From a bacterium (GTDB lineage: Bacteria > Hinthialibacterota > Hinthialibacteria > Hinthialibacterales > Hinthialibacteraceae): DNA of 64,000 bases. The position numbers were made by a program, and so were the translations under genes. A model generated the notes under the pieces. That model was not told the origin of the DNA and ran no database searches. It saw nothing but the letters and a program-made list of their open reading frames with translations. Each line of letters starts with the position of its first letter. The first letter of the stretch is position 1. Below are positions 1,659 through 58,499 of the stretch, piece by piece. The stretch spans positions 21,956-85,955 of the forward strand of contig CAXXSM010000079.1 in NCBI GenBank assembly GCA_963663405.2. The letters are read 5' to 3'.

Positions 1659-1748
1659 CATGATTGAGATCACAATAGCAAATGAAAATGAGTCGCGGTA
1701 GGGCGCCTCACGCTTTATCGACCCACCGGGAAACTCATTTTCATATAA
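1659..1748 (+). repeat. Dispersed structured element A, copy 1 (core replaced by a REP)
   Basis: CATGATTGAGATCACAA..AATGAAAATGAGT-[GTAG REP]-AAACTCATTTTCATATAA. Confidence 0.85.
1698..1727 (+). repeat. GTAG-REP family 2, chimeric copy nested in element A
   Basis: GTAGGGCGCCTCACGCTTTATCGACCCACC. The left arm matches the 3525 copy and the right arm matches the 48756 copy. Confidence 0.7.
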
Positions 1749-1753
1749 ACCAT

Positions 1754-1842
1754 CATGATTGAGATCACAACCACAGATGAAAATGAGCTGCGAGAGTAAT
1801 CTCGAACGAGTAAGTCTTAAAAACTCATTTTCATATAAAAGG
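1754..1842 (+). repeat. Dispersed structured element A, copy 2 (tandem with copy 1)
   Basis: CATGATTGAGATCACAACCACAGATGAAAATGAGCTGCGAGAGTAATCTCGAACGAGTAAGTCTTAAAAACTCATTTTCATATAAAAGG; ends about 10 nt before ATG 1852. Confidence 0.9.
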
Positions 1843-1851
1843 ACATACTGA

Positions 1852-3474
1852 ATGAAAGGTTTTTTAGTCACCACCTTATTTTGTTTACTCATAGAATTCG
1901 TCTTACCAGGTAGAGCCTTTACAGAAATCGAAATCGTCCGCAGCCGGTTTATTCCTTTGGCGATTTACGCGGACGGTTTGCAAACCAGCCGGATGGAAAT
2001 TCAGTTGAATCCCAACGGAGAAGCGCCACTCTCCATCTCCGTCACGAATCCCTACCAATCGATCTTGATCGATGGGCAATGGGAAAGTGTTCTTACATTA
2101 TATGACGATGGAACCAATGGTGACATTACCGCAGGGGATGGAATCTACACTCGAAATGGAATTCAAGTCAGTGGAGACACGATCCTCCGCTACCGGGACC
2201 ATACCGTCGACCGTCTTTCATTCTACCCCTTCGCCAACCTGATCGCCAATACGACAGAGGGCAGTCAAATCGTTCCTTTCTCTTCGCACAACGCGCCATC
2301 CTTGGGTCTCGTTTCACCGGATGTAGGAATTCAGGTTTATGAACCCGCTTCCGATATACGAATGAGTGACCGGATCGTCAATATGATTATTGAGAGTCCG
2401 TTTGAAGACAGCTTTCATCAATCCGGCGCCGTCCTCGAAGAGGGAACCATCCAGAATCAAGCCTTACGCCGTTTCTTCCAACTTTTTCACGATGAATACG
2501 ATTTCATCTTTCTTCTCCCGGAATCAAACGTGATGGGAGACTATCCGATTCACACTCTGATCACGAATGATGTCAGCGGTATCGGTCTCAGCGCAGAGAT
2601 CGACTATAGCCAATCGGTTGGAAGCGAGGGATATTTAAAAGGTGTGATGCGGCTGCCGATGGATCCAAATGGTTCATTTCTTCAAGCGATCATGAGACAG
2701 TGGGGTGTTTATCTCAGTTCCGAATTCGGTTTTGGGGGCGAACTTTACCCCAATTCCTGGGGGCTATCCAGCGTGAATGGCGCGCTGGGTGGATACAATC
2801 CCGAATCCTATGTCAATAACATGAATGGAACGGTCAACGTCGATTTTTTCCTCCCCGGCGGCTCAACGGACACAAAGCCATACGCCGATCTCGAACTCTA
2901 TCTCGCGGGAATGAAAACCGCCCAGGAAATCACGCCTGTAACAGTGATCCGTGATGGGCAGATCGAATCACAGGGCCGCACGATCACGATCCGGTTGGGA
3001 ACGCCGGAGACCATTACGATCCAACAAATCATCAACGTCCACGGGCCGCGAATTCCAGCGTATCAAGAATCCCAAACGGATTTCCGCGCGGCGTTCATTG
3101 TTCTTTCCACGCACCCATTCGAACAATCGGAACTGGCGTTCTATCACGCCATCGCCAAACACTTATCTCAAAAATACACCTCCTCCGAATATACCTTCTA
3201 TTTAGCCACTAAAGGGGAGGGAACACTGGACACAATACTCGGTGAGTTCAAAGATCCCGCGCTCTGGACTGTCCGCCGCTCCCAACCGACTCCCACTCCC
3301 GTGCAGGGCGATTACAACGCCGACGGACGAATTCACATCAACGATGTGATCCACTTAGCAAACGAATGGGGGAAAGACGTTTCACAAAATAACCGCTTTG
3401 ACTTGAATGATGACGGCGCCATCGATCAGCACGATCTCCTGCTCTTAATTGAAGGGAAAAAGGACCTGCCTTAG
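1852..3474 (+). CDS. Secreted protein: choice-of-anchor-X-like motif, degenerate zinc-metallopeptidase-like domain, C-terminal dockerin/EF-hand-like module
   Basis: Signal peptide; LYDDGTNGDITAGDGIYT; DEYDFIF...FLQAIMRQWG...YADLELYLAG; PTPTP linker; GDYNADGRIHINDV and DLNDDGAIDQHDL loops. Confidence 0.7.
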   Translation: MKGFLVTTLFCLLIEFVLPGRAFTEIEIVRSRFIPLAIYADGLQTSRMEIQLNPNGEAPLSISVTNPYQSILIDGQWESVLTLYDDGTNGDITAGDGIYTRNGIQVSGDTILRYRDHTVDRLSFYPFANLIANTTEGSQIVPFSSHNAPSLGLVSPDVGIQVYEPASDIRMSDRIVNMIIESPFEDSFHQSGAVLEEGTIQNQALRRFFQLFHDEYDFIFLLPESNVMGDYPIHTLITNDVSGIGLSAEIDYSQSVGSEGYLKGVMRLPMDPNGSFLQAIMRQWGVYLSSEFGFGGELYPNSWGLSSVNGALGGYNPESYVNNMNGTVNVDFFLPGGSTDTKPYADLELYLAGMKTAQEITPVTVIRDGQIESQGRTITIRLGTPETITIQQIINVHGPRIPAYQESQTDFRAAFIVLSTHPFEQSELAFYHAIAKHLSQKYTSSEYTFYLATKGEGTLDTILGEFKDPALWTVRRSQPTPTPVQGDYNADGRIHINDVIHLANEWGKDVSQNNRFDLNDDGAIDQHDLLLLIEGKKDLP

Positions 3475-3524
3475 AGCCGAGATTTGAACCACCATACAAA
3501 CGTTATATAGAATTATGCCAGCAT

Positions 3525-3587
3525 GTAGGGCGCCTCGCGCTTTATCGAGGCGCCATTTTCGCGAATCATTCCCGGTGGGTCATAAAG
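3525..3587 (+). repeat. GTAG-REP family 2 hairpin with conserved tail and an inverted half-copy
   Basis: GTAG-GGCGCCTCG-cgcttta-TCGAGGCGCC, then ATTTTCGCGAATCATTCCC, then GGTGGGTCATAAAG (reverse complement of the 48756 right arm). Confidence 0.75.
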
Positions 3588-3600
3588 ACACTTCTGCTTC

Positions 3601-3841
3601 ACCCTTCAACCTCCAACCAAAACCTCTATTTAACTTAGCGGGTGGCCAGGGCAAGGTTTTTTTTCTGCCCTGGCGCTACGTTCCAAAAATCACACTATAA
3701 CCCTTCAGCCTCCAACCTAAACCCCTATTTAACTTAGCGGGTGGCCAGGGCAAGGTTTTTCATCTGCCCTGGCGCTACGTTCCGGAAATCATGACGCAAC
3801 CCTTCCGCCTTCCGTCTTCAACCTAAACCCCTATTTAACTT
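3601..3841. repeat. ~99-bp tandem repeat (about 2.4 units); each full unit carries a GTAG-REP family 1 hairpin
   Basis: CTATTTAACTTAGCGGGTGGCCAGGGCAAGGTTTTT..TCTGCCCTGGCGCTACGTTCC occurs twice (hairpins 3645-3679 and 3744-3778). A partial third unit overlaps the stop codon of the 3831 ORF. Confidence 0.85.
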
Positions 3842-5134
3842 CTTCCGCCTGCTTTTCCAATGTGAGGAGGACTTTCACCGCTTTAGGGATAGGCGCCTCG
3901 TCCTGTACATATTGTTTTAGCTTGCGAAGATGATTTTTCATATCGTAATAACTTTGATAGAATTCCAAGAGAGAGGGGAGAGACCGTTCGTCTTTCTTCG
4001 CATGTTTCATCGCGGAATCAAGCCGGTCGACCGCTTGCTCATATCTCCCTGTCGCAAGCAGAGAAAGGCCGTACGCGGTTTGCGCTTCCAGGTCATCGGG
4101 AGCGAACGTTAGCAGAGATTTCAATTCCTTCCTCGCCTTGAAATACTGCCGTCCGGCGAATAATTTTTTCCCCTTCTCCAACATTAGTTGGGCCGGACTG
4201 AGTGTCAGTGGGGAATCCTCGTCTTGATTCACAATCTCACGCAAGTCCACCGTGATCGGAGACAGATGCGAAGACGGATTAACATTCGTAGAAATATCCT
4301 CATCCGCTTGCGTATCAGATCGCCGAGGAACACCGCGGAAAAAACTCCTATTTTCAACAGGCGGCAGAGTCGGCGTCATCGTAGGTTTCGGCCGCGGCGC
4401 CGCTGTCGGCGTGGAAAGGGGATCAGCGTTGGAATCGGTGTTTGAGAAACGGCCGGTCCCATCGATATACGTGGCATCAATGTGTCACGTAGATTAAATC
4501 CTGCGCCCGGTGGCGGCATATGAATAACATTTCTCTGCCGGGTTATGATATCTTCATCAAACGCCCTGGCGCCTTTCATCCACGAGTCGCCATAGATTTG
4601 GAAGGATGGATCCCTGAAATATTGATTATTTGGCCGCAGAGGAGGAGCCCCCCCTCCACCGGTTGGATGCATAATATAAGGTTTATTAATAATATAAGCA
4701 ATGTTGAGAATGCGCGCATTATTAATAATCTGGGCGTTGTTGAGAATATAGGGATTGTGAAGTGTGATCGGTTGAAATCGCATGCGATCCGCTTCAAGAC
4801 GCTCTTCATTCAGAATGGCCGGTTTATTGAGCGTTTCGGCCTTATTCAGGATTTTCGCGTCATTCAAAACCTTCGAATCATTCAGTATTTTGGATTGATT
4901 GAGGATTTTAGATTGATTGAGAATGTTGACTTTGTTGAGAATCCTGGGTTTGTGAAGCAGATGCGCTTTCCGGAGAGTGCGTGGCGACATGATTCCCTGC
5001 CGATCTTCCCAGACCATCCCAAAGTCATCCACCCAGACTTTCTTTTCTTGTGGACTCTCATCCTGCGATAACGTTTCCGGAATCGAAACGCATCCCACCA
5101 GAAATGGAAGAAGAAAGAAAAACCGCTTACACAT
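3831..5134 (-). CDS. Secreted protein with hexapeptide (LNxxKI) repeats, Pro/Thr linker and C-terminal TPR; probably one gene split by a frameshift near 4410
   Basis: ORF 4376-5134 (signal peptide, ILNQSK repeats) ends in TPIPTLIPF. The other frame continues PTAAPRPKPTMTPTLPP into TPR ORF 3831-4379 (GLSLLATGRYEQAVDRL). Confidence 0.6.
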
Positions 5135-5280
5135 TATACATCTCCAACGAACGGATATCTTGAAAAAAAGATATCACACGCCGATTCGTTCCCCTGATCC
5201 GCAGGGTTTCCCTTCCTGAAGGAGTGTATCACAATCGAACGGGCCTGTCCGTCATTCACCATAGAACCAGGAATCCTATC

Positions 5281-5318
5281 AAAACAGCCCGGTCAAAAAA
5301 CATTGACCGGGCTGAAAA
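5281..5318 (-). terminator. Intrinsic terminator
   Basis: CAGCCCGGTCAA/TTGACCGGGCTG stem with a T-run on the minus strand, just after the stop at 5338. Confidence 0.75.
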
Positions 5319-5337
5319 TGCAGAGATTCTGAAAAGT

Positions 5338-6646
5338 CTATATCTCTTCTGGAACGGTGAAGGGCGTACGATAGTCACCACACAAAATCATGTTCGCTTG
5401 ATCGTCATCGATGCAGCGTTCCGTTTTCGGATCGAACCGCAAGGTCCGCTCGGTCAGATAGGCCGCGTTCGCCAAATGACAAAGCGCAGAAGACAGGTGG
5501 CCTTCTTCGACAGGCGCGTTCAGGTCTTCTACTTTGCGGCTGCGCACGCAATCGATGAAATTGGCCCAGTGATCGCCGCTTTCATCTCCACTAGGTCCTG
5601 GTTTCCGTTCACGGCCCAAGTAGACTTGGTACTTGCTGTAACTGGGAATCACCATATACCCTTTGGAGCCCAGGAATAAGTTCCCGACAACGTTGCCCCG
5701 GCTTCCCTCACCCAATTCGTCCTGTGTGATCCAATGGCGAACCTCAAAGACCATCATTTTGTTCTCTTCCGGGTATTTATACGTCGCGACCATAGTATTC
5801 GGCGTTTCCTGGTCGTCGTCAAACATGAAGTGACCGCCAAGACAGTTGATCTGACTAGGCAGGCCGACATTCAATCCCCACCGGGCGACGTCAAATTGAT
5901 GCACGCCTTGATTGCCGATATCGCCATTGCCGTAATCCCAATGCCAGTGCCAGTTATAGTGGAAGCGGTTCTCGGCTGTATGGGCGCTGATCCGCCGGGC
6001 CAAGCCATTCATTATAATGCACACCCTCCGGCGGTTCGCTCTCCGGTGTGTGGCCGATTGTGTTCCGCCATTTATAACACGTGCCTTTCGCGTAATAGAC
6101 TTCCCCGATTAATCCATCGTGGAGCATCTTCATCGCTTCTTGGATCGACGGATTGCTGCGGATTTGCGTGCCGTGTTGGACGATGCGGTTGTACTTCTTC
6201 GCCGCTTCCACGAGTTTGCGTCCTTCATAAATATTATGGGAGAGGGGTTTTTCAACATAAACATCTTTCCCCGCTTGACAGGCCCAGATCGCCATCAGTG
6301 AATGCCAGTGGTTGGGGGTGGCGATGGTCACTGCATCGATATCCTCATTTTGAAGTAAGTCTTTGATATCCGTGTATTTCTTGGGATCGTTCGGAAACCG
6401 TGGATCGTTCTTTAACCGTTCCGCCCGGTCGTTCAAGATTTCTTCATCGACATCGCACAAGGCGGCGATTTTTACATTGGGAAGTCTCTTGAATCCATCA
6501 ATATGACTCCGGCCCCGGCCATTCAGTCCCACGCACGCGACATTGATGGTGTCGTTTGCGCTCGCTCCCGCGTTAGTCAACACCGTCAAACCAACCGCCG
6601 CGCCGGTGGCGCTTTTGAGAAAATTCCTGCGTGTTTCGTTTTTCAT
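5338..6646 (-). CDS. Tat-exported Gfo/Idh/MocA oxidoreductase (frameshift near 5975)
   Basis: TRRNFLK Tat motif, VGLNGRG, ATPNHWH, DVYVEKP, WDYGNGDIGNQGVHQFD; split over ORFs 5954-6676 and 5338-6024. Confidence 0.85.
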
Positions 6647-6812
6647 AATACACTCCATTCCATTCATGAATCCCATTCTCTGTCCGAAAGGGTTTTGTGA
6701 TTGATTGTATCCCGTATAGTAAAGGTATATATGTATAGGTCAAGCGGATGGATTTTATTGTTCCCAATATTACTATCTAAGGGGAAAATTATTTCATCCG
6801 GAGTCATTATAC

Positions 6813-7871
6813 ATGAAAACGCTATCCACCATTCTTTTAACAATCGGTTTAATCCTATTCGATTCTCCCTCCCCAATTCCAGCGGCGGAGGTAACGCCGG
6901 TTCCTGTCATCTTTGATACGGATATCGGCGCCGGCATCGATGACACCTGGGCGCTCGCCATGATCCTATGCTCACCGCAGTTAGACTTAAAACTCATCGT
7001 CACCGCCTATGACAATACCGTGAACAAGGCCAAAATCGCCGCGCGGTTTTTAGAGCGGGTGGGCCGGATGGATATCCCCATCGGGATCGGAATTAAACTC
7101 AACGATAACTCTTCTCTGCAAGACGAATGGGTTAAAAACTACGATTTGAAACGCTATCCAGGAGCGATTCATGAAGACGGCGTGGCCGCGATGATCAACA
7201 CAATCCGCGCGTCCAGCGGAACCATTACTCTTATCGCGGTAGGGCCTTATACAAACATTCACGAAGCCCTGCGCCGGGCGCCGGATATCACCCAGAAAGT
7301 CCGTGTGGTCACAATGAGCGGCAGTCTGAACCGGGGGTATGACGGAACATATTCCCCCGATGCGGAATACAATATCCGTGCCGACATCCCCGCCGCGAAA
7401 GCCCTCTATTCAGCGGGCTGGGATCTGACCATCGCGCCCCTCGACACCGCTGGACTGGTGTCAATTAAGGGGATGTCCTATCAACGATTGCTCAAAGAGG
7501 AGAAAGAACTCCTCCCTCTCACAGAACGGCAGCTCCGGCGCGGAGAGATCGCCCGCACACCGAAAAGTCCGTTGATCATCGCCCTGATGGAAAATTACCG
7601 TATTTGGAAAAAAGCCGGCCGGCGGAAAGCCGATCCGTTGGTTCGCAGTTCCATCCTTTATGACACCGTGGCCGTCTATTTGGCCTATGATCAATCTCTT
7701 TGTGAAATGAAGGACCTGCGTCTTCGCGTGAGTAACATTGGAATGACGGAGTTGAGTTCAAAAGGACAAGTGGCGCATGTCGCCGTTCAATGGAAAAACC
7801 AAACTCAATTTGAAGAACAATTGGCGCAGACTCTGATTAATGGGATTGTGGAGAAAAAGAAGAATCAATGA
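6813..7871 (+). CDS. Inosine/uridine-preferring nucleoside hydrolase family protein, secreted
   Basis: IFDTDIGAGIDDTWAL, VGPYTN, AEYNIRAD, APLD and LYDTVAV motifs; signal peptide. Confidence 0.85.
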   Translation: MKTLSTILLTIGLILFDSPSPIPAAEVTPVPVIFDTDIGAGIDDTWALAMILCSPQLDLKLIVTAYDNTVNKAKIAARFLERVGRMDIPIGIGIKLNDNSSLQDEWVKNYDLKRYPGAIHEDGVAAMINTIRASSGTITLIAVGPYTNIHEALRRAPDITQKVRVVTMSGSLNRGYDGTYSPDAEYNIRADIPAAKALYSAGWDLTIAPLDTAGLVSIKGMSYQRLLKEEKELLPLTERQLRRGEIARTPKSPLIIALMENYRIWKKAGRRKADPLVRSSILYDTVAVYLAYDQSLCEMKDLRLRVSNIGMTELSSKGQVAHVAVQWKNQTQFEEQLAQTLINGIVEKKKNQ

Positions 7872-7890
7872 AATTGTAATTCAGATACAA

Positions 7891-9417
7891 TTATCGAATC
7901 TCCTGCCACCGGTTCCCATCGCGGACAAGAAGCGAATTCGCTTCTTCAGGGCCAAGGCTTCCTTTCTCATAAAACACGAGTGGCAGAGACGGCTCCACTT
8001 CGATCGCTTGGATGACTGGATCCATAAATTCCCACGCTCTTTCAATCGCGTCTTTCCGGGCAAATAGCGTTAAATCACCACGGGCGCAATCGAGCAACAA
8101 CCGTTCATACGCTTCAGGAGGGCGCCGTTCAAATCCCGCGGCGTATTTAAAGTTCATATCCACATTCCCGATCTTTAACCGGTCACCCGGTTCTTTACAT
8201 ACAAAGCGCAGTGAAATCCCTTCATCCGGCTGAATCCGCATAATCAGCACGTTTGGATCGATCATTTGACAAACGTCTTCCCGCCCGAACAGGCAAAAAG
8301 GAATCGGGTTGAACTGGATCGCAATCTCCGTCACGCGCCGTTGCAACGCCTTCCCAGCCCGGAGATAAAACGGCACGCCCTGCCAACGCCAATTATCCAC
8401 CATCACTTTCATCGCGGCGTACGTAGGCGTATGGGAATCGGGAGACACATCCGCTTCCTCCCGGTACCCTTTGTATTGCCCGTAGACGGTATGATTCTGA
8501 ATCGCTGAACCAAGCAGCGGACGCAAAGACCGCAGCAACTGCAGTTTCTGATCGCGGATATCATTCGCTTGAAATGTAACCGGCATTTCCATCGAACAGA
8601 GCGAAAGAATTTCGAGCAAATGGTTTTGAACGATATCCCGGAAAACACCGGTCTCTTCATAAAAACTGGCGCGGCCCTCGATGCTGATATCTTCCAACGC
8701 GGTGATTTGCACGCAGTCAATAAACTTCCGGTTCCACAACGGCTCAAAAATCGAATTCCCGAAACGAAACACGAGGATATTTTGAACGGTTTCCTTTCCT
8801 AGATAATGATCGATACGGAAAATCTGATCTTCCTCAAGCATTTCCAGAAGAGTTTGATTGAGACGCCGCGCCGATGCGAGATCACGGCCAAAAGGTTTTT
8901 CAATGATGATCCGCTGCCAAGATTTCGAAGAAGGAGCCTGTTTCTGAATCAGCCCCGCCTTGGTCAAGTGGGAGAGAATGACGGGAAACACCTTTGGTGG
9001 TGTGGAAAAATAGAAAATCCGATTGCCATTCGTTCCCCGCTCGCGGTCGATCTCCTCGATCTGTTTACGGAGAGCGTCATACATCTCTTCTTTGTACACA
9101 TCCCCGCTCATGCAAGTCAGCGACGGCGCGAACCGGCGCCAAATCTCCTCATCAAATAAGGGGGAGAATTTCGAAGTGGATTCATGATGCAGATCCCGGA
9201 ACGCCTCGACAGACGACGCCCGGCGGCTTACACCCATGACGGCAAAAGGCTCCTTGAGCAACCCTTCCCGGAACAGATTGTAACAGGCGGGGATCAATTT
9301 CCGCTTGGCTAAATCCCCCGTCCCTCCAAAAATGATCAAGAGAAATGGATCGGGCCGTTCCAAATCGCCGTCCTGAGCGGATTTATGTAAATGAAACATC
9401 GTTTCCAATTCAAGCAT
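7891..9417 (-). CDS. zwf: Glucose-6-phosphate 1-dehydrogenase
   Basis: IFGGTGDLAKRKL, IEKPFG, RIDHYLGKE, WQGVPFYLRAGK, AYERLL; ATG 9417 follows a GGAG RBS. Confidence 0.95.
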   Translation of the reverse strand: MLELETMFHLHKSAQDGDLERPDPFLLIIFGGTGDLAKRKLIPACYNLFREGLLKEPFAVMGVSRRASSVEAFRDLHHESTSKFSPLFDEEIWRRFAPSLTCMSGDVYKEEMYDALRKQIEEIDRERGTNGNRIFYFSTPPKVFPVILSHLTKAGLIQKQAPSSKSWQRIIIEKPFGRDLASARRLNQTLLEMLEEDQIFRIDHYLGKETVQNILVFRFGNSIFEPLWNRKFIDCVQITALEDISIEGRASFYEETGVFRDIVQNHLLEILSLCSMEMPVTFQANDIRDQKLQLLRSLRPLLGSAIQNHTVYGQYKGYREEADVSPDSHTPTYAAMKVMVDNWRWQGVPFYLRAGKALQRRVTEIAIQFNPIPFCLFGREDVCQMIDPNVLIMRIQPDEGISLRFVCKEPGDRLKIGNVDMNFKYAAGFERRPPEAYERLLLDCARGDLTLFARKDAIERAWEFMDPVIQAIEVEPSLPLVFYEKGSLGPEEANSLLVRDGNRWQEIR

Positions 9418-9496
9418 ACTGTTCTCCCATCCCAGCGTCTTTTTTTTGTGAACGCGCGCTGGAATCATTGGGTGAATCGCGTTTTGGGTATTTATA

Positions 9497-10312
9497 TTAT
9501 CGCCAGTGAGAGACGCCGGGTCTATGTGTCTGGATTTGGTATAAACTCGTTCGAGCGGTGATATACAACGTTTTATAATCCGATCCGCCAAAGGCGCAGT
9601 TAGCCGGACGTTGAGGCAGTTCAATTGTTTCCAACCGGTTTCCCTTCGGATCCAAGACAACGATCCCTTCCGTGGACATGGCGTACAGATTTCCCTCCAC
9701 ATCCACTTTCATTCCATCCGGGCGGCCCACCTTGGCGAACACGCGACCTTCCTCCAGATCACCATCCGCTGTAACGCGAAAGAGATGTATCTCCTCTTGC
9801 TGTGTATCGGCGATATAAAGATGGCTCTCATCAGGAGTGAACGCCAATCCGTTCGGCCGATCCAATTCCTTGGTCAAAAGAATGGGGGAGGAGCCAGGGA
9901 GTACACGGAAGACACCGTTGAATGGGAGTTCTCTCTCTTCCTCCTTGGTTCCATAAGGCGGATCGGTGAAATAGACGATCCCATCGGAGCGGGAGACACA
10001 ATCGTTGGGACTGTTGAGACGTTGGTTTTGATAGTGGTCCGCGATGGAAACAACCGATCCATCGGGATTCGTCCGGCTTACCCGGCGGGCTTCATGTTCG
10101 CAGGCGATTAGACATCCCTCTGGATCAATAGTCAAACCATTGGATTGATTACTTGGAGAACGCCAAACAGAAAGCCCCTCATCCTCGCACCAGCGATAAA
10201 TCGTACTCTCCGGAATATCGCTAAACAGCAGATAACCGTCTTTATGCCAGACGGGGCCTTCGAGAAAAGTAAACGATTCAGCGATTGTTTTAACTGCGGA
10301 GGAGAAGATCAT
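9497..10312 (-). CDS. SMP-30/gluconolactonase family protein
   Basis: EGPVW, FSDIP, SNGL, NSPND, PNGLAF and PDGMKVD motifs. Confidence 0.9.
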   Translation of the reverse strand: MIFSSAVKTIAESFTFLEGPVWHKDGYLLFSDIPESTIYRWCEDEGLSVWRSPSNQSNGLTIDPEGCLIACEHEARRVSRTNPDGSVVSIADHYQNQRLNSPNDCVSRSDGIVYFTDPPYGTKEEERELPFNGVFRVLPGSSPILLTKELDRPNGLAFTPDESHLYIADTQQEEIHLFRVTADGDLEEGRVFAKVGRPDGMKVDVEGNLYAMSTEGIVVLDPKGNRLETIELPQRPANCAFGGSDYKTLYITARTSLYQIQTHRPGVSHWR

Positions 10313-10317
10313 GATTA

Positions 10318-10884
10318 TTAAGAATTGAAAAATGGATTGCCGTTTTTCTCAATTCCCACAGTCGTCATCGGACCGTGGCCGGGGCAGATTAAGAGATCAT
10401 CGGGCAGTGTGAATATTTTCTTTTGGATATTATCCATCTCTTCATTCTTGGCCGCCGCGCCACTCGTTCCACCAATCGATCCGGCGAATAACGCGTCGCC
10501 GACAAAAGCGAATCGATTCTCCACAACCAGTGTGATTGAGTTCGGCGTATGGCCGGAGGTGCGAAGAACGCGGGTATTCAATTTCCCCAGCGGCAGGGAG
10601 TCCCCTTCACCAACCGCCTTTCCATTGGACGTTGTCCCTGTGCTTGAATAGACGGGAACATTGTGACGCCGGAGGATCGAATCCAATCCGGCGTCGTGAT
10701 CCCAATGCAAATGAGTAAGAAAAACTCCCACAAGCCGCGCCTCAATCGCCGATAGAAACGCGTCGTATTCAGGCGTATCATCACCCGCGTCGATTAATAG
10801 CGCGTCTCCCGTCTCCCGGCAGCCAACGATATATGTATTCGCCTCGTTCGCTTCCTTGAGAAAAAATGGTTGAAAGAGAATCAT
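10318..10884 (-). CDS. MBL-fold metallo-hydrolase (glyoxalase II-like)
   Basis: THLHWDH, GHT, GDALF and PGHG motifs. Confidence 0.9.
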   Translation of the reverse strand: MILFQPFFLKEANEANTYIVGCRETGDALLIDAGDDTPEYDAFLSAIEARLVGVFLTHLHWDHDAGLDSILRRHNVPVYSSTGTTSNGKAVGEGDSLPLGKLNTRVLRTSGHTPNSITLVVENRFAFVGDALFAGSIGGTSGAAAKNEEMDNIQKKIFTLPDDLLICPGHGPMTTVGIEKNGNPFFNS

Positions 10885-10897
10885 CGTTCCGCTCCCT

Positions 10898-12355
10898 TTA
10901 CGGCGCCGGATAGGGTATGGGACTTTCCAACTCTTGCGTCATATGATCGGGAAGTATCCAAACGTCGCCCGATTGATTGCAGAAATAGAGACGGGATTCA
11001 GATGGCTCCAGCGCGTTTCCATCCGCCCAGAATCCATAAAAATCTGGATGCGCGTCGATCGGTTTTCGGACATAGGTATGATTGCGGGGACTGTCTTTTG
11101 TCATCTGGCGGACCTTCTTCCACGTTTTTCCCGCGTCCTCACTGGTCCAGAGAGCGATTTCACCACCCGTGCAATACGCCTGCGGCCCAGGTTCCGTGGG
11201 AGCGATGATGCGCCAGGTCCCATCGTCTTCGATATAAAGCGAACCCATATCATAGTTATGATCGGACTGCGTCACAACCTTGCGCTCCCATTCCTTCCCC
11301 GTCCAATGAACAATGAGCCACGTGCGTGGACCGTTCTTCGGTCCGGACTCGAATCCTTTGCTCAACACGACGAGAATCACGGGATTCCCTTTCAGGTCGT
11401 AAGTGATATCTTTTAAATAGACCAAATCACCGTCTTTTTGAAAGTCATAAACAAGGGCGTCATTTTGAGGTGAATCGAGCGGGATCTCCAGTTCTTTCCC
11501 ATCCACCGTAGTCCAGGTTTTCCCAAAATCGGGTGTTTCCATGTAATATAAATTCGTACGGGCGTTCAAACCCACTTTAGGAGGATGCCAGTTAAACGCC
11601 GTGCCCCGGCGGGAACCGCCACAACCACAACGGGCGCTGATCTGATAGTGCCCGGCGAATCCAGCGATTTTAATATCCTCGCCCCATTCACGGCCGTCCC
11701 GGCTCACATTGAAATAACATTCCCGCCCCCCCGTGTATTTCGTAAAGAGAAATAGAAAACCGAATCCCTCCTCGAACAGCGGCTGGGGATACGTGAATTC
11801 TTTTTTCATAACAAGTTCAAACGAATCGATCGAATATGGTTTTACACTCTTCCAGATAAAACCGTCTTTCCCGCCATGCGCGCTGGCAAAGACCCAAAGA
11901 TACCCGTCAGAATCGAGAGTCAGCACGGGATTATGATGAGCGTCGGATGTGCCTTTTTCCATGATAAGAGCGGGTTTAGGAACTTTCTTGGCCGTATGAT
12001 CGTAGTAAGAGACCATAATCAACAGGGCATTTGGTTCATTCACGCCTTTAGTTCCACCGTACACGAAAAAGGTCTTATTCACTTCCGGCGCATATTGGGC
12101 GTGATACCGGTGTTTCGCGCAGTATGTCCCAAGGCCGCCGCTGTATTTATACCGGTATTGATCGTCGGCTCTCTGGTTGCTGTACCAAATCCCGCGGTAG
12201 CCATCCACCCGCTCCGTTTTGACAATCACGGATTCGAATTTCGGAGATGTAGATGGACTGTCTTGCGCGACACCTTCCATAACGAAAAAGAAACAGGCCA
12301 CAGCAGCCAAGCCGCTCCAAATAATACGTGTTCTATTGGTTGTCACAATCGTCAC
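10898..12355 (-). CDS. Secreted BNR-4/Asp-box repeat protein
   Basis: Signal/TM N-terminus; DAHHNP; Asp-boxes SRDGREW, TPDFGKTW and SEDAGKTW. Confidence 0.75.
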   Translation of the reverse strand: MTIVTTNRTRIIWSGLAAVACFFFVMEGVAQDSPSTSPKFESVIVKTERVDGYRGIWYSNQRADDQYRYKYSGGLGTYCAKHRYHAQYAPEVNKTFFVYGGTKGVNEPNALLIMVSYYDHTAKKVPKPALIMEKGTSDAHHNPVLTLDSDGYLWVFASAHGGKDGFIWKSVKPYSIDSFELVMKKEFTYPQPLFEEGFGFLFLFTKYTGGRECYFNVSRDGREWGEDIKIAGFAGHYQISARCGCGGSRRGTAFNWHPPKVGLNARTNLYYMETPDFGKTWTTVDGKELEIPLDSPQNDALVYDFQKDGDLVYLKDITYDLKGNPVILVVLSKGFESGPKNGPRTWLIVHWTGKEWERKVVTQSDHNYDMGSLYIEDDGTWRIIAPTEPGPQAYCTGGEIALWTSEDAGKTWKKVRQMTKDSPRNHTYVRKPIDAHPDFYGFWADGNALEPSESRLYFCNQSGDVWILPDHMTQELESPIPYPAP

Positions 12356-12445
12356 CCCTTACCTTTATTTCGCGAATACCGGAAGGAGGCCCCAGGATAA
12401 TTCCTGGGACCACATTCCGATTCCATAAACGAATAATTGAATGGT

Positions 12446-14494: not shown

Positions 14495-14578
14495 TGTTTC
14501 CTCCTCGTACTTAATTAGAGTATTGTGAAAATTCGTAAAGATTAACATACAATGAAGTAGAAAAGTTATTTAAATCGA

Positions 14579-15190
14579 TTATCGTTTCGCGCCGCTCAGA
14601 TCGGCGTTTTCAAAGTTGGCTTGACCGATAGCGGATGTTAGATCGGCGTTCACGAGTTTCGCTTTGCGAAAGATAGCGCGTTGAATCTCCGCGTCATGAA
14701 ACGTAACGCCGGAAAAATCCGCCGCGCCAGGCCGGGAATAATAGAATTTCGCGCCGTTGCAATTCGCCTCACGCGCGATCGTTCCGACCAAGTTGGACCG
14801 CCGCAGGTTGGCGTTCTGGAGATTGGCGCCGGTCAGGTTCGCCCGTCCAAGAATCGCGAATTCACAATCCGCGCCGGATAAATCCGCGCCGTCCAGGCGG
14901 GCGCTGTCGAGATTCACCCTCTGGAGATTCGCTCCCGCCAGATTCGCTCCCCGGAAATCACAGCGAACCAAACAGGCGGACGAGAAATCGAAGCCGCCAC
15001 AGTCCGCGCCGCTGAAATCTACATCCGCCAACACCCATCCCGCGAGGGATTCTCCCGCGCGGCCTCGTTCGAGAATTTTCTGTGTGAACGCGTCCCGGTC
15101 AAGAAGATGTTCCCAGCAATGCTCTTCACCCGTCAAAGCCAGCCGCCCATCCCCCGCCGCGCATTCAACAAATTGGAAATATGTATTCAT
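14579..15190 (-). CDS. Pentapeptide repeat protein
   Basis: Continuous A(D/N)LxG-type pentapeptide repeats. Confidence 0.9.
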   Translation of the reverse strand: MNTYFQFVECAAGDGRLALTGEEHCWEHLLDRDAFTQKILERGRAGESLAGWVLADVDFSGADCGGFDFSSACLVRCDFRGANLAGANLQRVNLDSARLDGADLSGADCEFAILGRANLTGANLQNANLRRSNLVGTIAREANCNGAKFYYSRPGAADFSGVTFHDAEIQRAIFRKAKLVNADLTSAIGQANFENADLSGAKR

Positions 15191-15395
15191 GAATTTCCGC
15201 CTCCCCCACTCCACAACAATACACTCCCTTATACTTTGACCGCGCGCAAGGGATCAAATGGAATGGATGGATGAAATAATCATAATCTATATAGCGTATA
15301 TCATACTATCCATTTAACAAATAGGAAACACATCGTAAATATTTAGAAATAAAGACCTTGAGTGAATAACAGGGAAAGGAGACGGTATCGGAACA

Positions 15396-15923: not shown

Positions 15924-15937
15924 GAACTTGCCTTATG

Positions 15938-16030: not shown

Positions 16031-16039
16031 GTGCGGGCG

Positions 16040-17357: not shown

Positions 17358-17445
17358 TAAATAGGGCTCACACTGCATGTGATTACGTAAAGTTTCATAT
17401 TACTCTCATTTCATGTAATATTATGCAATAATGTTCGCACGGGTA

Positions 17446-17523: not shown

Positions 17524-17537
17524 CCAGCTGATTGATA

Positions 17538-20259: not shown

Positions 20260-20353
20260 CCGTTTATATGAAAATGAATTTTATAAACTTGCTCGTTCGA
20301 GATTTCTATCACAATTCATTTTCATTTGCAGTTATGATCTCAAATCATGATGG
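20260..20353 (-). repeat. Dispersed structured element A, copy 3
   Basis: Reverse complement reads CCATCATGATTTGAGATCATAACTGCAAATGAAAATGAATTGTGATAGAAATCTCGAACGAGCAAGTTTATAAAATTCATTTTCATATAAACGG. Confidence 0.85.
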
Positions 20354-23454: not shown

Positions 23455-23590
23455 AATAAATGTCTCCCATTCTCATAGTCTCAAGAAATTAATACAATCA
23501 AAAAGTTGAAATTCGCTTCTTTATTGTACTCAATTTAATCATTGAAGAATACTCTATTCTTTGGATTTACGTTAAAAAAAGCATATAAAC

Positions 23591-23682
23591 TATCACGATC
23601 GAGATCACAACTGCAAATGAAAATGAGTTGCGGGAGTAAATACAAACGAGAATGTTTTCGAAACTCATTTTCATATAAAAGG
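23591..23682 (+). repeat. Dispersed structured element A, copy 4
   Basis: ATCACGATCGAGATCACAACTGCAAATGAAAATGAGTTGCGGGAGTAAATACAAACGAGAATGTTTTCGAAACTCATTTTCATATAAAAGG; about 14 nt before ATG 23696. Confidence 0.9.
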
Positions 23683-39546: not shown

Positions 39547-39585
39547 CTCATTTTCCTTTGCGCGTTGCGATCTCAATTATGATGG
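39547..39585 (-). repeat. Element A, 5' half-copy
   Basis: Reverse complement reads CCATCATAATTGAGATCGCAACGCGCAAAGGAAAATGAG, just upstream of ATG 39529. Confidence 0.65.
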
Positions 39586-46116: not shown

Positions 46117-48646
46117 CTACAAGAATGGCGCGAGATTGCCATTGCCGTCCAATTGATATGTTTCATCCCGAGTCAGCCCAGTGATCTCAATGGAACATCC
46201 AATCGCGTCCTGCAATCTCGCAACGAGACTGTCCGCCTTCGTATATTTCCCACCTGAGACAGCGCAGGTATATTGTATCTTACACCCATTTTTGATTCCA
46301 GCAACATATGATCGATAAAGATTGAAATCCTTACGCCATTCCGGATGATTTAACAATCTTTGGATCGTTTCCAGCGGCGGCCCGGCGCCCGGAATTGAAC
46401 AATGGATCGTAAATTGAAACGCGTTGAGAGCGGCTGTTATTTTCTTCGCCTGCGCGCCGAGTTCACAAACGGCTACAATCCGCAATCCTTCGGGACACAA
46501 TCGATTCAGACGCTGGATCAAGGATTCAGGATCGCAGCGTTCTGTTGTGTACAAATCCAAATACTCTCCCAGACTCTCGACACCGACCGGCAGCGCGGAA
46601 GCGAATACGATCTTTGGATGGGGATGAAATCCTTGCGAGAAAGCAATGGGGATTTCCGCCCGGCGGAAGAGCGCTTCAAACATCGACATGAGATCGAGGT
46701 GCGAAAGATAGATCAAACGGCCTGTTTTGCTGAACTTCAACCGGCAGCGGAACGGTGATGTTTGGGATTGGGCGCCTTCTGAAGAACGCCGGCTGGTGTC
46801 AGGACTCCGCGCTGTTTCCGGCTCTACGCTGGGCGCATGGATTGTCATCGTGTTCTCACCATCACAGACACCGCAAAGAGTACAGAATTCGTTCCCACAA
46901 TGGCGGTTTCCGGAGGCGGAAAGCGTTTTTTCCCATTCGCTCCAGAGATAGTGATCCGAAATCCGGGCCGAGATGGGTCTCCAAGGCAAAAGATCGTCCT
47001 GTTCGTATTGTTTCGAGGCGTATTCTTCCAGAGAAAGGCCATGACTGGCAAACGCGTCGACCCATCGCTCGAAAGAGAAGCGCTCCTTCCATTCATCGAA
47101 ACGCCCTCCATTTTCATACACGGTCCGTATAACGGATCCAACCCGGACATCACCGCGCGCGAGCGCTGACTCCACTACACTTTTCCGGGGATCATGCCAA
47201 TTTACTTTGATCCATTTATCGGACAAACCCGACCGGATCACATTCACGCGCCGTTCCATTTCTTCCAAAGAAATCTGGCCGTACCACTGAAAAGCAGTGT
47301 GGGGTTTGGGAACGAAAGGAGAAATCCCAACGTGGATTTTCGTCCGTTTCTTCCCTTCCCGGCGCAACATATCCTTGATTTTATGGATTAGGTCAACAAT
47401 TCCATGAATATCTTGATCCGTCTCGGTGGGTAAACCCAACATAAAATACAGTTTGATGACTGTCTGCTTTTTTTGGACGGTTTCTCGAGCCAGATCGAGA
47501 ATTTCATCGTCATGAATGAGTTTATTGATCGCCCAGCGCAGGCGCTCGGTCCCCGCTTCGGGCGCAAATGTGAGACCGGTTCCACGGACTTTACCTATCT
47601 CTTCAATTACATGAGAGGGAAAATTATCTACCCGTAGTGACGGCAGTGATAGAGCGACGCGCTGAGAATAGAAACCTTGGATCAATCCATAGCAGAGATC
47701 CGGTAACCGGGAATAATCCCCTGTCGAGAGCGAAAGAAGGCTGAGTTCATCCAATCCCGTTTCGCGCAAGCTCATTTTCGCGTCGCGCAGAAGCCGTTCG
47801 TATGAACGTTCCCTTACGGGCCGGTTGGTATACCCCGCCTGGCAGAAACGGCAGCCGCCGGAACAGCCACGCATCACCTCGAGCGCCACGCGGTGATGAA
47901 TCACCTGCGTGTTGGGAACGATTGGTTTTTCGGGATAATAGGACCGCTCGAAATCCATGATCAAACGCTTTTCAACGCGTTCGGGGATTCCGTTATGTTT
48001 TGGGGTGTAGAAGAATCGTTTCCCCCAACCGGTTTGTGACTGTCTCATATAATGAAGGAACGAAAACACCGGGGATTTTCCCCAACTCGCATAGAATCTC
48101 ACTTCGTTGCGCGCGAGCGTCCCGCAATCTCTTCACACAGCCACATATCTCCAGAATCACCTCTTCCCCTTCACCGACCGCAAACGCATCCATGAAATCC
48201 ACGAGCGGCATGGGATTATACGCGCAGGGCCCCCCGGCGATCACGATTGGATCATCATCACGGCGCTGTTCGGCGATAATAGAAATCCCTCCAAGATCGA
48301 GAACCGTTAGAATGTTCGTATAGAGCATTTCATGCTGTAAAGCAAATCCAACGATGTTCATTTCATGGAGCGGCGTACCGCTCTCCAGTACGCATAAGCG
48401 CTTTTTCTCTTGACGCAGCTGCGCTTCCCGGTCCGGCCATGGCGCGAACGCCCGTTCGCACCAGATCGTTTCCTCCTTATTTAAGAGTCCGTAAAGAAGC
48501 TGCAAACCGAGGAAGGACATCCCTACTTCATATACATCCGGATAGACAAATGCAAAACGCAGTTTGCCCTGTGGATCCTTATGAACAGCGTTCCATTCCG
48601 ATCCAATATACCGAACAGGTTTTTCCACGGAGACTAAATTCTTCAT
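46117..48646 (-). CDS. Radical SAM protein (TIGR03960-like) fused to a TIGR03936-like domain; frameshift near 48010
   Basis: EKPVRYIGSE, PDVYEVGMS, WCERAF, RGCSGGCRFC, TFAPEAG, FVPKPHT, YLSHLD, GFHPHPK. Confidence 0.85.
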
Positions 48647-48701
48647 TAATAAATTCTTTATTGATTTGATGTGAGAATGAATTTCGATAATATACAAGCA
48701 T

Positions 48702-48804
48702 GTAGGGTGAGTCGCGTCTAAAGGAGGCGCCAATTTCGTAAATCATTCCCAGACTGTAGGGTGGGTCGCGCCTTTATGACCCACCGTTTTCGTGAATCAT
48801 TCCC
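48702..48804 (+). repeat. Two tandem GTAG-REP family 2 units (54-bp period)
   Basis: GTAGGGTGAGTCGCGTCTAAAGGAGGCGCC and GTAGGGTGGGTCGCGCCTTTATGACCCACC, each followed by a TTTCG..AATCATTCCC tail. Confidence 0.8.
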
Positions 48805-48811: not shown

Positions 48812-48851
48812 ACTCATTTTCATTTGCAGGTTGTGATCTCAATCATGACGG
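48812..48851 (-). repeat. Element A, 5' half-copy abutting the REP pair
   Basis: Reverse complement reads CCGTCATGATTGAGATCACAACCTGCAAATGAAAATGAGT. Confidence 0.8.
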
Positions 48852-56321: not shown

Positions 56322-56929
56322 GGTGTTTTTTCCAATATGAATAAATGTTTGGCCAAGTGGATCACCGGAAGGAACGAGGGGATCTCTTTTTGAACCGTCC
56401 AACCGGATTGTTGAAAGATTTCACGAATACGGGATAGATTCATATACCCGCTGGGAATCATTGGATTGGGGAAGTCCGGCACATAACCAAGACGTTTAGA
56501 AAACCAATAAGCGCCTTTCCCAAAGAGGGCTTCCCGGCATTGCAACAACCGGGACGCCGCATGACTGTGATAGATCGATTGATAAACAATCAACCGCCGC
56601 TTTGCGATCCGGCGTAGATCCGAAAGAAATCGCGCTGGATCCGCGCTGTAGTGTAATACATAAATGAGAAGGATCGAATCGAAACAGTCTTGTTGAAACG
56701 GAAGCGTTTCACCATCAAACAGAACTGGTTCCGGCCCCACTCGTTTCATATCCGTCACATCACATTCGGTAATACGCCAAGGACCGTTGCGCCGTAAAAA
56801 GTCCGCGTTGTGTCCAGTTCCACAGCCTACATCCAAGACGGTCTCCTGCTCCTCAAGAAAGGGAAGCAGCGATCGGCCGATTTGTTCCGCGCGGCGCCGC
56901 ATGATGTTATCCATCCATTGATGTATCAT
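56318..56929 (-). CDS. Class I SAM-dependent methyltransferase
   Basis: VLDVGCGTG, FDGETLPF, VLHY. Confidence 0.85.
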   Translation of the reverse strand: MIHQWMDNIMRRRAEQIGRSLLPFLEEQETVLDVGCGTGHNADFLRRNGPWRITECDVTDMKRVGPEPVLFDGETLPFQQDCFDSILLIYVLHYSADPARFLSDLRRIAKRRLIVYQSIYHSHAASRLLQCREALFGKGAYWFSKRLGYVPDFPNPMIPSGYMNLSRIREIFQQSGWTVQKEIPSFLPVIHLAKHLFILEKTP

Positions 56930-57641
56930 GATTCATTCCATTCCTGCTAAATTTCTCCAATTCATCCAAAAAAACAGGCGAAAATCCTTGGTTGAGAAAA
57001 TCAGTAAGTCTTCGAATCCCATAATTCAAGAATCCCCGGTTCACATCCTGCGGATGAAAAACAATACATGGAATTCCAGGACATAAGAATCGATGAACAT
57101 TTCCATACCACCCAGCCAGATATCCCAATCCCGCGAATCGCCCACAATCCCAAAAACCATGTGTTGATCCATTCAGCTTGATTCGAACGAGTATGTATAA
57201 GCCGTGTAAGACCAAGAACTATATCAATCCCTATCGAAGATAAATGGCTGGATTGAAGCGGCCCCATCTGCCAGCAGGGAGGGATAAACGTTCGAATAGA
57301 CCTTTGGGTAATCTCTTCCAAGATATCTTTACCACGCTGCAAGCGGGAAACAGCACTGTCTACAGCGCGTCCACTCATTTCATTCGCGCCGCCGGTGAGA
57401 TACGAAAGAAGATCCAATCGACGACCGCTCCGGTGATCGAAACCATGCAGAGCAAAGGAAAACGCTTTCTCATCAAAGATTGTACCTGAAAAAAGAACTC
57501 GTTTTTTTCTCAAAAGCGCCAGGAACAACAGCCAAAATCGCTTTTGTACCGATATAAGGTTGAACGCGATCGAGAATTACGCCAATCTCTCGTTCAATAA
57601 CAGGGCATAATATCATGGATGGTTACAAAGACTGTCTTCAT
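56907..57641 (-). CDS. DUF2334-like polysaccharide deacetylase (multiple frameshifts)
   Basis: MKTVFVTIHDIMP.., ALHGFDH, E, FIPPCW and VFHPQD are distributed over several frames. Confidence 0.6.
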
Positions 57642-57871
57642 TGTTGTTCGATCGTGAAAATATCTGGTTTACAAAGACTTTCTAATTTGGCCAACAGATG
57701 AAAGCATACCCTATGCTGGCGTATAGATACTTGAACGAATTCAAGTATACAGAGGTAACTTTGTAATATAAAGTCCACAGAAAAATAAAGTTGAATCGGT
57801 ATAAGGTAACTCATCCCTATTCGCCGCCCGGATCAAGAAGATGTAAATCGAAGCGCGCCCAAGCGCCGTGA

Positions 57872-58170
57872 TTACACTCTCTTTTCCCACTGACGTGGGA
57901 TTCCGGCTGCCATGCATTACAGCCAACACAACAATGGATTGCTCAATCGTTTGGTAATAAACGCCAAAAGGGAATTTGTGAATTAACGCTCGCCGTACTT
58001 CCTTATGAACAAAAGGGTATAAAAAAGGGGTTTCATCGATGGTTTTCAGAGTGTGGAGGATTTCATCCAAAAATCGCTCACCAAGGCCTTTGCGTTGACT
58101 TTCATACCAGACAGCGGCGTCTTCGATATCCTTTTCCGCCTCCGTCCGTATTTATTTTATTTCTATTACA
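57872..58170 (-). CDS. RelE/ParE family toxin (frameshifted ends)
   Basis: EAEKDIEDAAVWYESQRKGLGERFLDEI...RRALIHKFPFGVYY...LAVMHGSRNP. Confidence 0.75.
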
Positions 58171-58375
58171 ATCGTTTTCTAATTTCGTCTATGACAACTT
58201 CAGCCGGTCGGCCTTGGGCTCCATCCAATTTAAGAGATTCCAACCGCCGATCCAATTCTTTTCTTTGTTCGCCAGTTAATACCAACGCCTGCTGATCCTC
58301 CGCAATACTATCCCAAAGGTCTTCCACAATCTGAAGGCGTTGCTCGATCGTAAGGTCTCTCAGCGATTGATTCAT
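58166..58375 (-). CDS. Addiction-module antitoxin (TIGR02574-like)
   Basis: LTIEQRLQIVEDLWDSI...QRKELDRRL; directly upstream of the ParE-like toxin. Confidence 0.85.
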   Translation of the reverse strand: MNQSLRDLTIEQRLQIVEDLWDSIAEDQQALVLTGEQRKELDRRLESLKLDGAQGRPAEVVIDEIRKRL

Positions 58376-58403
58376 AATCCATGCCTCGTTTTTCTAATAA
58401 TAA

Positions 58404-58499
58404 CCTCTTTTTATATGAAAATGAGTTTCTAAGGCTTACTCGTTCGAGATTACTCCCGCAACTCATTTTCATTTGCAGTTCTGATCTCAATCATACTGG
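58404..58499 (-). repeat. Dispersed structured element A, full copy upstream of the toxin-antitoxin module
   Basis: Reverse complement reads CCAGTATGATTGAGATCAGAACTGCAAATGAAAATGAGTTGCGGGAGTAATCTCGAACGAGTAAGCCTTAGAAACTCATTTTCATATAAAAAGAGG. Confidence 0.9.

Follow-up and report, generated by a model that had tools for sequence, protein, structure and literature searches.

The repeated element in the window (the whole 64,000-nt stretch analysed here) is, in our reading, a non-autonomous and non-coding mobile repeat that inserts site-specifically in a fixed orientation, and not a dedicated leader RNA; we give this reading a probability of about 0.6. It is best placed nearest to the gene-less derivatives of IS200/IS605 elements (PATEs) and to the REP/BIME repeats. 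Insertion is one-oriented, directly 3' of a tail-like site, (TTTT)CATATAAA, and the target is not duplicated. There is no consistent tie between the element and gene starts, and effects on neighbouring genes are probably incidental.

Genome-wide, 266 non-overlapping units of about 91 nt were located at 243 loci of the assembly (8.4 Mb, 82% complete), 193 of them full length and almost evenly divided between the strands (134+/132-); from these counts we estimate that the units make up approximately 0.26% of the genome. Genes were called with a crude ORF and hexamer caller of our own, by which nearly all units are intergenic and 12 lie inside genes, compared with 262 CATATAAA sites inside genes that carry no element. 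The family is old, its copies averaging 83% identity to the consensus. Three parts form a conserved frame, namely a 5' module of about 27 nt with the mini-hairpin TGAT(C)-N4-(G)ATCA, an AT-rich stem base (ATGAAAAT...ATTTTCAT) and the terminal motif CATATAAA. The core between the stem arms is variable, being a sequence of about 32 nt in most copies of this genome and a REP-like palindrome in some, and many 5' halves likewise carry REP-like inserts consisting of a GTAGGG head and a palindrome.

All seven copies listed by the first-pass annotation are present in the window, with coordinates right to within a few bases, and the 26-nt 5' consensus has four matches at ≤3 mismatches versus none in 100 shuffles. 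We delimited the refined bodies from CCATCATG... to ...CATATAAA. Copies 1 (1655..1749) and 2 (1750..1839), both on the + strand, form a head-to-tail pair in which copy 2 begins right at the end of the CATATAAA of copy 1. The former combines a normal 5' module, stem base and CATATAAA tail with a REP-like core (GTAGGGCGCC...; GTAGGG plus a hairpin) that had been overlooked, and the latter has the canonical core and a 3' end 12 nt before the ATG at 1852. Copy 3 (20263..20353, - strand), also with the canonical core, sits between two tandem genes, 65 nt ahead of the start codon at 20197. Copy 4 (23590..23679, + strand) lies in a divergent spacer 16 nt from the start codon, and its left flank (23582-23589) is CATATAAA, identical to its own 3' end. 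Copy 5 (58410..58499, - strand), which is near the family consensus, also sits between tandem genes; a small antitoxin-family gene (58166-58375) starts 34 nt downstream of it. Two 5' parts complete the set, both on the - strand. One is a truncated, degenerate 5' module (39547..39585) that breaks off inside the left stem arm, with the ATG at 39529 lying 17 nt further on, and the other (48812..48851) comprises the 5' module and left stem arm in a divergent spacer about 165 nt from the start codon. No 3' arm was found at the latter; two REP-like units, also missed previously, follow it at 48691-48804.

The boundaries of the family carry a distinct insertion signature. Conservation extends from about 12 nt left of CCATCATG to CATATAAA, and the right flank shows neither conservation nor a conserved ribosome-binding site. 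A degenerate (tt)CATATAAA forms the left flank and repeats the 3' end of the element; in the 171 non-tandem copies its profile (C.60, A.74, T.74, A.71, T.65, A.71, A.89, A.89) is that of the element's own last 8 nt. Terminal inverted repeats are absent, the termini being CCATCATG... and ...CATATAAA, and the sole inverted repeat is internal (body positions 28-40 / 73-85). Deviations in the left 8-mer are mirrored on the right in 22 cases against 18.1 expected, a number reached in 377 of 2000 shuffles, so that the flanks do not share deviations and no target-site duplication is present. Inverted repeats at the termini and short duplications of the target characterise classical bacterial MITEs, which derive from DDE transposons and include Correia, ERIC and RUP (for a review, see PMC10969869). 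The element resembles them in its length of about 90 nt, copy number, intergenic position, internal hairpin and capacity to affect the transcripts of its neighbours, but lacks both hallmarks, each of which was tested, and is therefore not an ordinary MITE.

Further support for insertion comes from 21 arrays (19 doubles and 2 triples), in all of which the units are on the same strand, in phase and head-to-tail with one common CATATAAA. Such arrays would be accounted for if the tail of a resident copy is itself a target, and 9 of 13 neighbouring pairs are as similar as random pairs (0.71-0.79 versus a mean of 0.75), as expected under independent insertions. A paralogous region of 76% identity has the site filled in one version and empty in the other. 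On the other side, neither an exact empty site nor an insertion polymorphism at the population level was seen for the element, and a second strain, from another study, retains the copies at 1655-1839.

The pattern that had suggested a regulatory leader does not extend beyond the window. The first-pass annotation had described the element as always lying in a 5' leader and co-oriented with the next gene, and this orientation does hold at all six window loci; however, three of them (1655/1750, 23590 and 48812) are in divergent spacers, where co-orientation is automatic, which leaves three informative loci. Its proximity to start codons is likewise real for the four copies that end <35 nt from one, but not for those at 65 and about 165 nt, and the ribosome-binding site it was thought to supply is not conserved. 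Across the genome, 75 loci in tandem spacers are co-oriented and 55 anti-oriented (p=0.095), close to random, while a further 78 loci lie in divergent and 21 in convergent spacers. Position within spacers is uniform (mean 0.49), and 21 of 125 co-oriented full copies end ≤30 nt from a start codon. The fixed orientation and distance to the start codon of a leader RNA or riboswitch were thus not found.

A cis-regulatory RNA, or a mobile promoter or 5'-UTR module acting on the downstream gene, is a very improbable explanation, even though the window loci fit it and some genome-wide observations lean the same way. Approximately 5 of 17 short 5' fragments adjoin a ribosome-binding site and ATG (e.g. 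...AAATGAAAAGGAG followed by ATG), and counting tandem-spacer units instead of loci gives a co-oriented excess of 83:58 (p=0.043), with unoccupied CATATAAA sites in such spacers leaning the opposite way (21:43). Against this, scanning of three window loci found no sigma-70-like promoter, the genes beside copies are unrelated, and 60 of 181 copies carry an indel at body position 22 that disrupts any short reading frame, ruling out a leader peptide. Every full-length window copy folds into the 13-bp outer stem ATGAAAATGAGTT/AACTCATTTTCAT, the three GNRA-type loops are as described, and the compensatory G-C to A-U change in copy 3 (the stem pair of body positions 38-75) is genuine, the same A-T pair recurring in 7 of 181 aligned genomic copies. 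However, the covariation term is negligible (-0.15 kcal/mol), pairing barely exceeds that with permuted partners for both the outer stem (93.4% versus 91.5%) and the inner 'GNRA' hairpin (68.5% versus 67.0%), only two pairs show double changes, of which one is linked to a subfamily haplotype, and Rfam returned no match. By the conditions that the first-pass annotation itself had set for refutation, the leader reading is not upheld.

A sister family in a genome of one other genus of the same taxonomic family (G009) separates what is constant in the element from what is exchangeable. This genome has 36 exact pattern matches (control, 0) with the same 5' module, AT-rich stem base and CATATAAA tail and flank, the left flank reading TTTCATA(T/G)AAA, and four tandem arrays among 31 copies. 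Most of its copies carry a REP-like palindromic core. At least four unrelated palindromes are interchanged in the upper stem with pairing kept, including a 27-bp perfect hairpin (-49 kcal/mol), and the copies fall into length classes of 90-92, 103, 106, 136-137 and 162 nt. Orientation to genes (11 co-oriented versus 9 anti-oriented) again speaks against a leader. What survives of the mobile leader proposed earlier is therefore the module of mobile type and a hairpin that matters as structure, the latter because these swaps preserve pairing, and not the cis-regulatory role.

The conservation of this frame across two genera could also reflect host retention, in which the units, having spread, are kept by selection as structural sites like enterobacterial BIME/REP, serving to stabilise or terminate transcripts through their hairpins, or to be bound by a DNA-binding protein. 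Conservation reaches 95-99% at stem positions and drops to 40-60% in the core, the 5' module contains the palindromes ATCATGAT and TGAT...ATCA, and the sister-genome copy that was scanned (L034, with a GC-rich core) gives terminator calls on both strands, with 6 sites versus 0.2 in shuffles. We nonetheless consider this explanation unlikely. Window copies contain no terminator-like sites, linked non-pairing variants define subfamilies, and selection for transposability among source copies would explain the uneven conservation equally well. In a segmental duplicate, 9 nt of the left arm are gone from one copy, and this single duplicated pair shows decay without maintenance. Furthermore, of 35 searched genomes of the class, 33 lack the element.

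The mobile-repeat reading also draws on comparison with known gene-less elements. PATEs are gene-less IS200/IS605 derivatives moved in trans by the Y1 HUH transposase TnpA. Like the element, they are short multicopy sequences that encode no protein, show neither terminal inverted repeats nor duplication of the target, have hairpins a few bases inside their ends and insert strand-specifically. The left ends of IS200/IS605 are described as inserting 3' of a specific tetra- or pentanucleotide (PMC5027513), and the account in PMC10055086 includes gene-less PATE-like forms as well as flank (TAM) and end (TEM) motifs that differ slightly and are read by DNA guides, an arrangement matched by the left end of the element adjoining a flank motif that recurs almost identically at its other end. 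Two features depart from this model and count against our main reading. Flank and tail resemble each other over 8-12 nt, whereas 4-5 nt is the known length for IS200/IS605. The two hairpins are unlike each other, contrary to IS608-type ends, the left one having 4-5 bp (TGAT(C)-N4-(G)ATCA) and the right stem at least 8-13 bp (ATGAAAAT.../...ATTTTCAT). The replication-strand bias is weak and can be cited for or against the reading, with unit orientation agreeing with GC skew, measured on unordered contigs, in 153 of 266 cases (57.5%, p=0.017) and in 92 of 151 where the skew is strong. The exchangeable palindromic insert at the hairpin centre also distinguishes the element from PATEs.

This insert is in turn a point of likeness to the REP/BIME/REPIN-RAYT systems, which are similarly abundant intergenic hairpin repeats built as mosaics of palindromic units and conserved extra motifs; REP-like inserts occur in copy 1, in many 5' halves and in the sister genome, and this genome encodes a RAYT-like gene. 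The frame itself (5' module, AT-rich stem base and CATATAAA) is, however, not a REP, and the units are directional and head-to-tail rather than inverted doublets. The RAYT-like gene (C71:25059-25622) is flanked not by the element but by a different hairpin family (CCAGGGCAAGG). It is one of two Y1 transposase genes in this genome, both with ends unlike the element, the other being an IS200-like copy on contig C38 with CC(C/T)CCGGC...GCCGG hairpins at its ends. The 5' module and tail are absent from all nine Y1 loci that were fetched, seven of them from relatives, and no TnpB was found. The main reading is further weakened in that neither a cognate TnpA nor a longer relative with the element's ends was recovered and no partner transposase was found, the assembly being 82% complete.

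The genome does encode 16 near-identical copies of an IS91-family transposase, which raises the option that the element is mobile by a non-Y1 route, either as an IS91/Helitron-like Y2 mini-element or through recombinase integration of small circles via the shared CATATAAA core. As described in PMC3189936, IS91-family elements end in and insert beside the same tetranucleotide and have a stem-loop at the terminating end, and their truncated products keep the origin end; the one-ended miniatures (IS801 fragments) are thus comparable to the element in target motif, stem-loop and a common end among truncated forms. Here, 17 of 40 5' fragments terminate at or near an internal ATGAAAA, which resembles ATATAAA, although 5' fragments are over-represented partly because the 3' part, at only 18 nt, is harder to detect. 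The cut point cannot be placed inside the 8-nt repeat, as expected for a shared recombination core. This route nevertheless appears doubtful, as the ends of the resident IS91-like elements (TTGGACGAAGCGG... and ...CTCCTATCTATT / ...CTATCTATT) are unrelated to the element, the sister genome has the family and no Y2 transposase, and no recombinase gene recurs beside copies.

Returning to a site-specific mobile repeat as the preferred reading, the identity of flank and end motif, the hairpin a few bases from the cleaved end and the lack of inverted termini or duplication lead us to infer HUH-type transposition. This could proceed as a single-strand 'peel-and-paste' or a rolling-circle process, by an enzyme supplied in trans. 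Pairing with its own left stem arm may be how the element reads the target, in which case one internal DNA guide would read both target and tail. Incidental effects on neighbours could include hairpins in transcripts and, in the sister genome, terminator-like hairpins. More tentatively, it is possible that the family represents an undescribed HUH-type mini-element, in which left-arm pairing picks the 8-12-nt target and the frame is a vehicle for interchangeable palindromes; REP-like and terminator-like hairpins would then be spread through the genome by its movement.

These results remove a false lead, since no new riboswitch-like leader is present here, and add a well-defined small mobile repeat for a lineage that has been little studied and is known from metagenome assemblies alone. 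Because their AT-rich tails resemble promoter -10 boxes, the units will mislead annotation and motif finders. With its clean insertion signature (a flank equal to its own tail, no duplication and head-to-tail arrays) and modular hairpin, the family could help to show how gene-less hairpin elements pick their targets and acquire palindromic inserts.

The repeat reported by the first-pass annotation was recovered at every place named for it in the window, and its 26-nt 5′ consensus gave 4 matches with up to 3 mismatches against 0 in 100 shuffles. The body of this ~91-nt hairpin-bearing element begins with CCATCATG and ends with CATATAAA. Full copies lie at 1655-1749 (+; copy 1, whose core is a REP-like unit starting GTAGGG, unlike the other cores), 1750-1839 (+; copy 2), 20263-20353 (-; copy 3), 23590-23679 (+; copy 4) and 58410-58499 (-; copy 5), and 5′ parts at 39547-39585 (-) and 48812-48851 (-), the latter followed by two REP-like units with the same GTAGGG start. 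On folding, each full window copy forms a 13-bp stem, ATGAAAATGAGTT/AACTCATTTTCAT.

A search profile made from the full copies identified 266 non-overlapping units (134+/132-; 243 loci after merging) in the source assembly, G000 (8.44 Mb, 170 contigs, 47% GC, estimated 82% complete), comprising 193 full copies, 40 5′ parts, 6 3′ parts and 27 others. Copies share a mean pairwise identity of 75%, or 83% with the consensus, and 176 of 181 aligned copies have distinct cores. Many 5′ halves are in fact complete elements: REP doublets or a second hairpin family occupy the core, and the 3′ arm comes 110-250 nt further on. Seventeen short fragments end at or near an internal ATGAAAA, about five of which adjoin a ribosome-binding site and ATG. 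The GTAGGG-headed REP-like family, with a GC-rich hairpin and a ...TTTTCGTGAATCATTCCC tail (window 3514-3573, 48691-48804 and 1698-1730), often forms inverted doublets and occurs within element cores at several genomic loci. In the related genome G009, a GTAGGGTGGG hairpin lies upstream of a RAYT-like gene. Separately, seven contigs (C110, C141, C4, C86, C161, C47 and C99) have 4-13 kb blocks in common at 88-96% identity, perhaps because they are large multi-copy elements or because the bin mixes strains.

Conservation extends from ~12 nt left of CCATCATG through CATATAAA and then stops. In the 171 copies without a preceding copy, the left flank (C.60, A.74, T.74, A.71, T.65, A.71, A.89, A.89; T enriched further left) is a degenerate form of the element's own last eight bases. 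Deviations on the left have no counterpart on the right (22 shared against 18.1 expected), so the flank motif represents a target preference, not a duplication. Inverted repeats are absent from the element termini, and several placements of the cut point within the shared 8-mer fit the sequence equally. All 21 arrays are head-to-tail and in phase, with one CATATAAA common to neighbours, and in 9 of 13 neighbour pairs the two members resemble each other no more than randomly paired copies do, which fits independent insertion beside a resident tail. Of the unoccupied CATATAAA sites, 262 are genic and 102 intergenic.

The flank-based search for empty sites gave a sole usable case, a paralogous pair with one site filled and one empty, whose 76% identity is too low to fix the junction. 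The element is present in both copies of a segmental duplicate, and in one of them 9 nt of its left arm have been lost. A second strain, from another study, retains copy 1 in its contigs, one of which resumes within copy 2; no allele without the element was seen in contigs of 4 runs over 1401-21400. In a strain from another study, a block of REP and 99-nt repeats (window 3491-3807) is replaced by 31 nt.

The first-pass annotation had proposed a cis-regulatory RNA or mobile leader, citing co-orientation with the downstream gene at six of six loci. This orientation holds in the window, but three of the six loci are divergent spacers, and as such spacers give a co-oriented downstream gene either way, the observation rests on three informative loci. 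Genome-wide, using our own crude ORF and hexamer scorer for gene calls, 12 units fall inside genes, 78 loci in divergent and 21 in convergent spacers, and tandem spacers hold 75 co-oriented and 55 anti-oriented loci (57.7% co-oriented, p=0.095, unchanged at three gene-score cut-offs; 83:58 by units, p=0.043). Empty target motifs were rejected as the source of this lean because unoccupied motifs lean the opposite way (21:43). Relative position in tandem spacers is uniform (mean 0.49), co-oriented starts lie at widely varying distances from the 3′ end (≤30 nt in 21 of 125 full copies), and flank conservation across copies revealed no conserved ribosome-binding site on the right. A leader peptide (ATG plus 8 codons in the 5′ module) was rejected, given frame-breaking indels in 60 of 181 copies.

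The downstream genes in the window are, as first noted, unrelated (a dockerin protein, B12/radical-SAM enzymes, a HAD hydrolase and an antitoxin), and clustering of genes adjoining copies genome-wide returned only large, ordinary host paralogue families. At window 46117-48733 (-), an ORF for a radical-SAM N-terminal domain (47993-48733) overlaps a radical-SAM/DUF2344 body ORF (46117-48102) by 110 nt in different frames, which may reflect a frameshift, an assembly error or the presence of two genes. A 700-aa ORF at 12446-14548 (-) contains three internal ~650-nt repeats of 62-78% identity.

Covariation in support of a conserved leader RNA fold was negligible. RNAalifold on ten copies predicted the outer stem alone, with a covariation term of -0.15 kcal/mol, and pairing across 181 copies was close to that of permuted partners for both the outer stem (93.4% versus 91.5%) and the inner hairpin first proposed (68.5% versus 67.0%); GNRA-type loops occur in 100 of the 181. 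The A-T change singled out in copy 3 is real, lying at pair 38-75 and found in 7 copies including this one. Double changes are confined to that pair and 40-73, where the states (T-A in 105 copies, C-G in 44, C-A in 21) are linked to non-pairing variants marking a subfamily. An asymmetry between wobbles and mismatches, considered for picking the folding strand, was dropped as our tally had no clear preference. Apart from hairpin noise, Rfam held no match to the element at gathering thresholds or at E up to 10, and neither a sigma-70-like promoter nor an intrinsic terminator was predicted at three window loci. The sole window Rfam match above gathering is Acido-Lenti-1 RNA at 40256-40301 (-; 38.6 bits, cut-off 37). 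The data do not fit the leader RNA reading.

BLAST of one element copy against 30 relatives returned no matches, missing a sister family in G009, a genome of a different genus in the same family. A covariance model gave three weak matches there, and the 5′-module pattern 36 exact matches against 0 in the control; among 35 genomes of the class, only G000 (64 matches) and G009 (36) carried this pattern. Among the 5′-module matches, the mini-hairpin varies by a single C-G to T-A change and, in two cases, by T-G. The 31 unique G009 copies extracted share the G000 frame, CCGTCATGATC-N4-GATCACAACGAAGGATGAAAAT ... ATTTTCATATAAA, with the left flank TTTCATA(T/G)AAA and four head-to-tail arrays. Their cores include at least four unrelated palindromes with stem pairing retained, and the copies form discrete length classes (90-92, 103, 106, 136-137 and 162 nt); one GC-rich copy had terminator scores on either strand. 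Relative to crude ORFs, the orientation counts are 11 co-oriented and 9 anti-oriented. The exact hairpin pattern had 11 single matches in unrelated GTDB species representatives, and the one inspected was a plain terminator-like hairpin. Two element patterns had no matches in JGI metagenomes, nor did the element in IMG/VR viral contigs, in scans that may omit records of G000 and close kin.

A longer element bounded by the same ends was not found among G000 end pairs: 5′/3′ pairs 130-6000 nt apart are separate copies around ordinary genes or copies with REP inserts. TnpB was not found in G000, which has six IS110-type matches and two Y1 genes. The IS200-like Y1 copy was rejected as partner, its twin hairpins being unrelated to the element, and the RAYT-like one because it is flanked by CCAGGGCAAGG hairpins instead. 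Among the family's 20 genomes, 16 carry Y1 genes, and the fetched Y1 loci contained no element ends. An IS91-family partner was likewise rejected, since its 16 near-identical copies have ends unrelated to the element and G009 lacks a Y2 gene.

The CCAGGGCAAGG-T6-CTGCCCTGG hairpins form a third family (window 3601-3841, 16022-16086 and 17428-17525; G000 C71:24500-25800), including 99-nt tandem units at 3601-3798. On contig C71 they lie on both sides of the 187-aa RAYT-like gene, where the gene's own REPs would be expected. Direct CCAGGGCAAGG copies also bracket a GH5 cellulase gene (16218-17357; variant region 15982-17597) that is missing or swapped for 30 nt in some contigs of two public runs. 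IS91-family (Y2) transposase matches occur at 16 places in G000 (e.g. C6:10913-11419), 14 with identical bit score, and the ends TTGGACGAAGCGGCTCCGCC... and ...CTCCTATCTATT are common to 14 or 15 of 16 aligned loci, which suggests a rolling-circle insertion sequence active until recently. A Y2 gene is present in only one other genome of the family.

Among described systems, IS200/IS605 and its gene-less PATE derivatives come closest in their logic. Passages in PMC5027513 describe IS200/IS605 left ends inserting 3′ of a specific short motif, and passages in PMC10055086 a flank motif almost identical to the end motif, both read by DNA guides within the element. For the IS91 family, passages in PMC3189936 describe a target that matches the element's end in a similar way, as well as truncated products. 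Unlike IS200/IS605, however, the element has two hairpins that differ from each other, a motif 8-12 nt long, a weak GC-skew bias (orientation agrees in 153 of 266 units) and no cognate enzyme found in the partner search. Taken together, the results match what a selfish, non-autonomous element with site-specific insertion in a fixed orientation would produce. It would be a variant among known small mobile repeats, and its mechanism is inferred.
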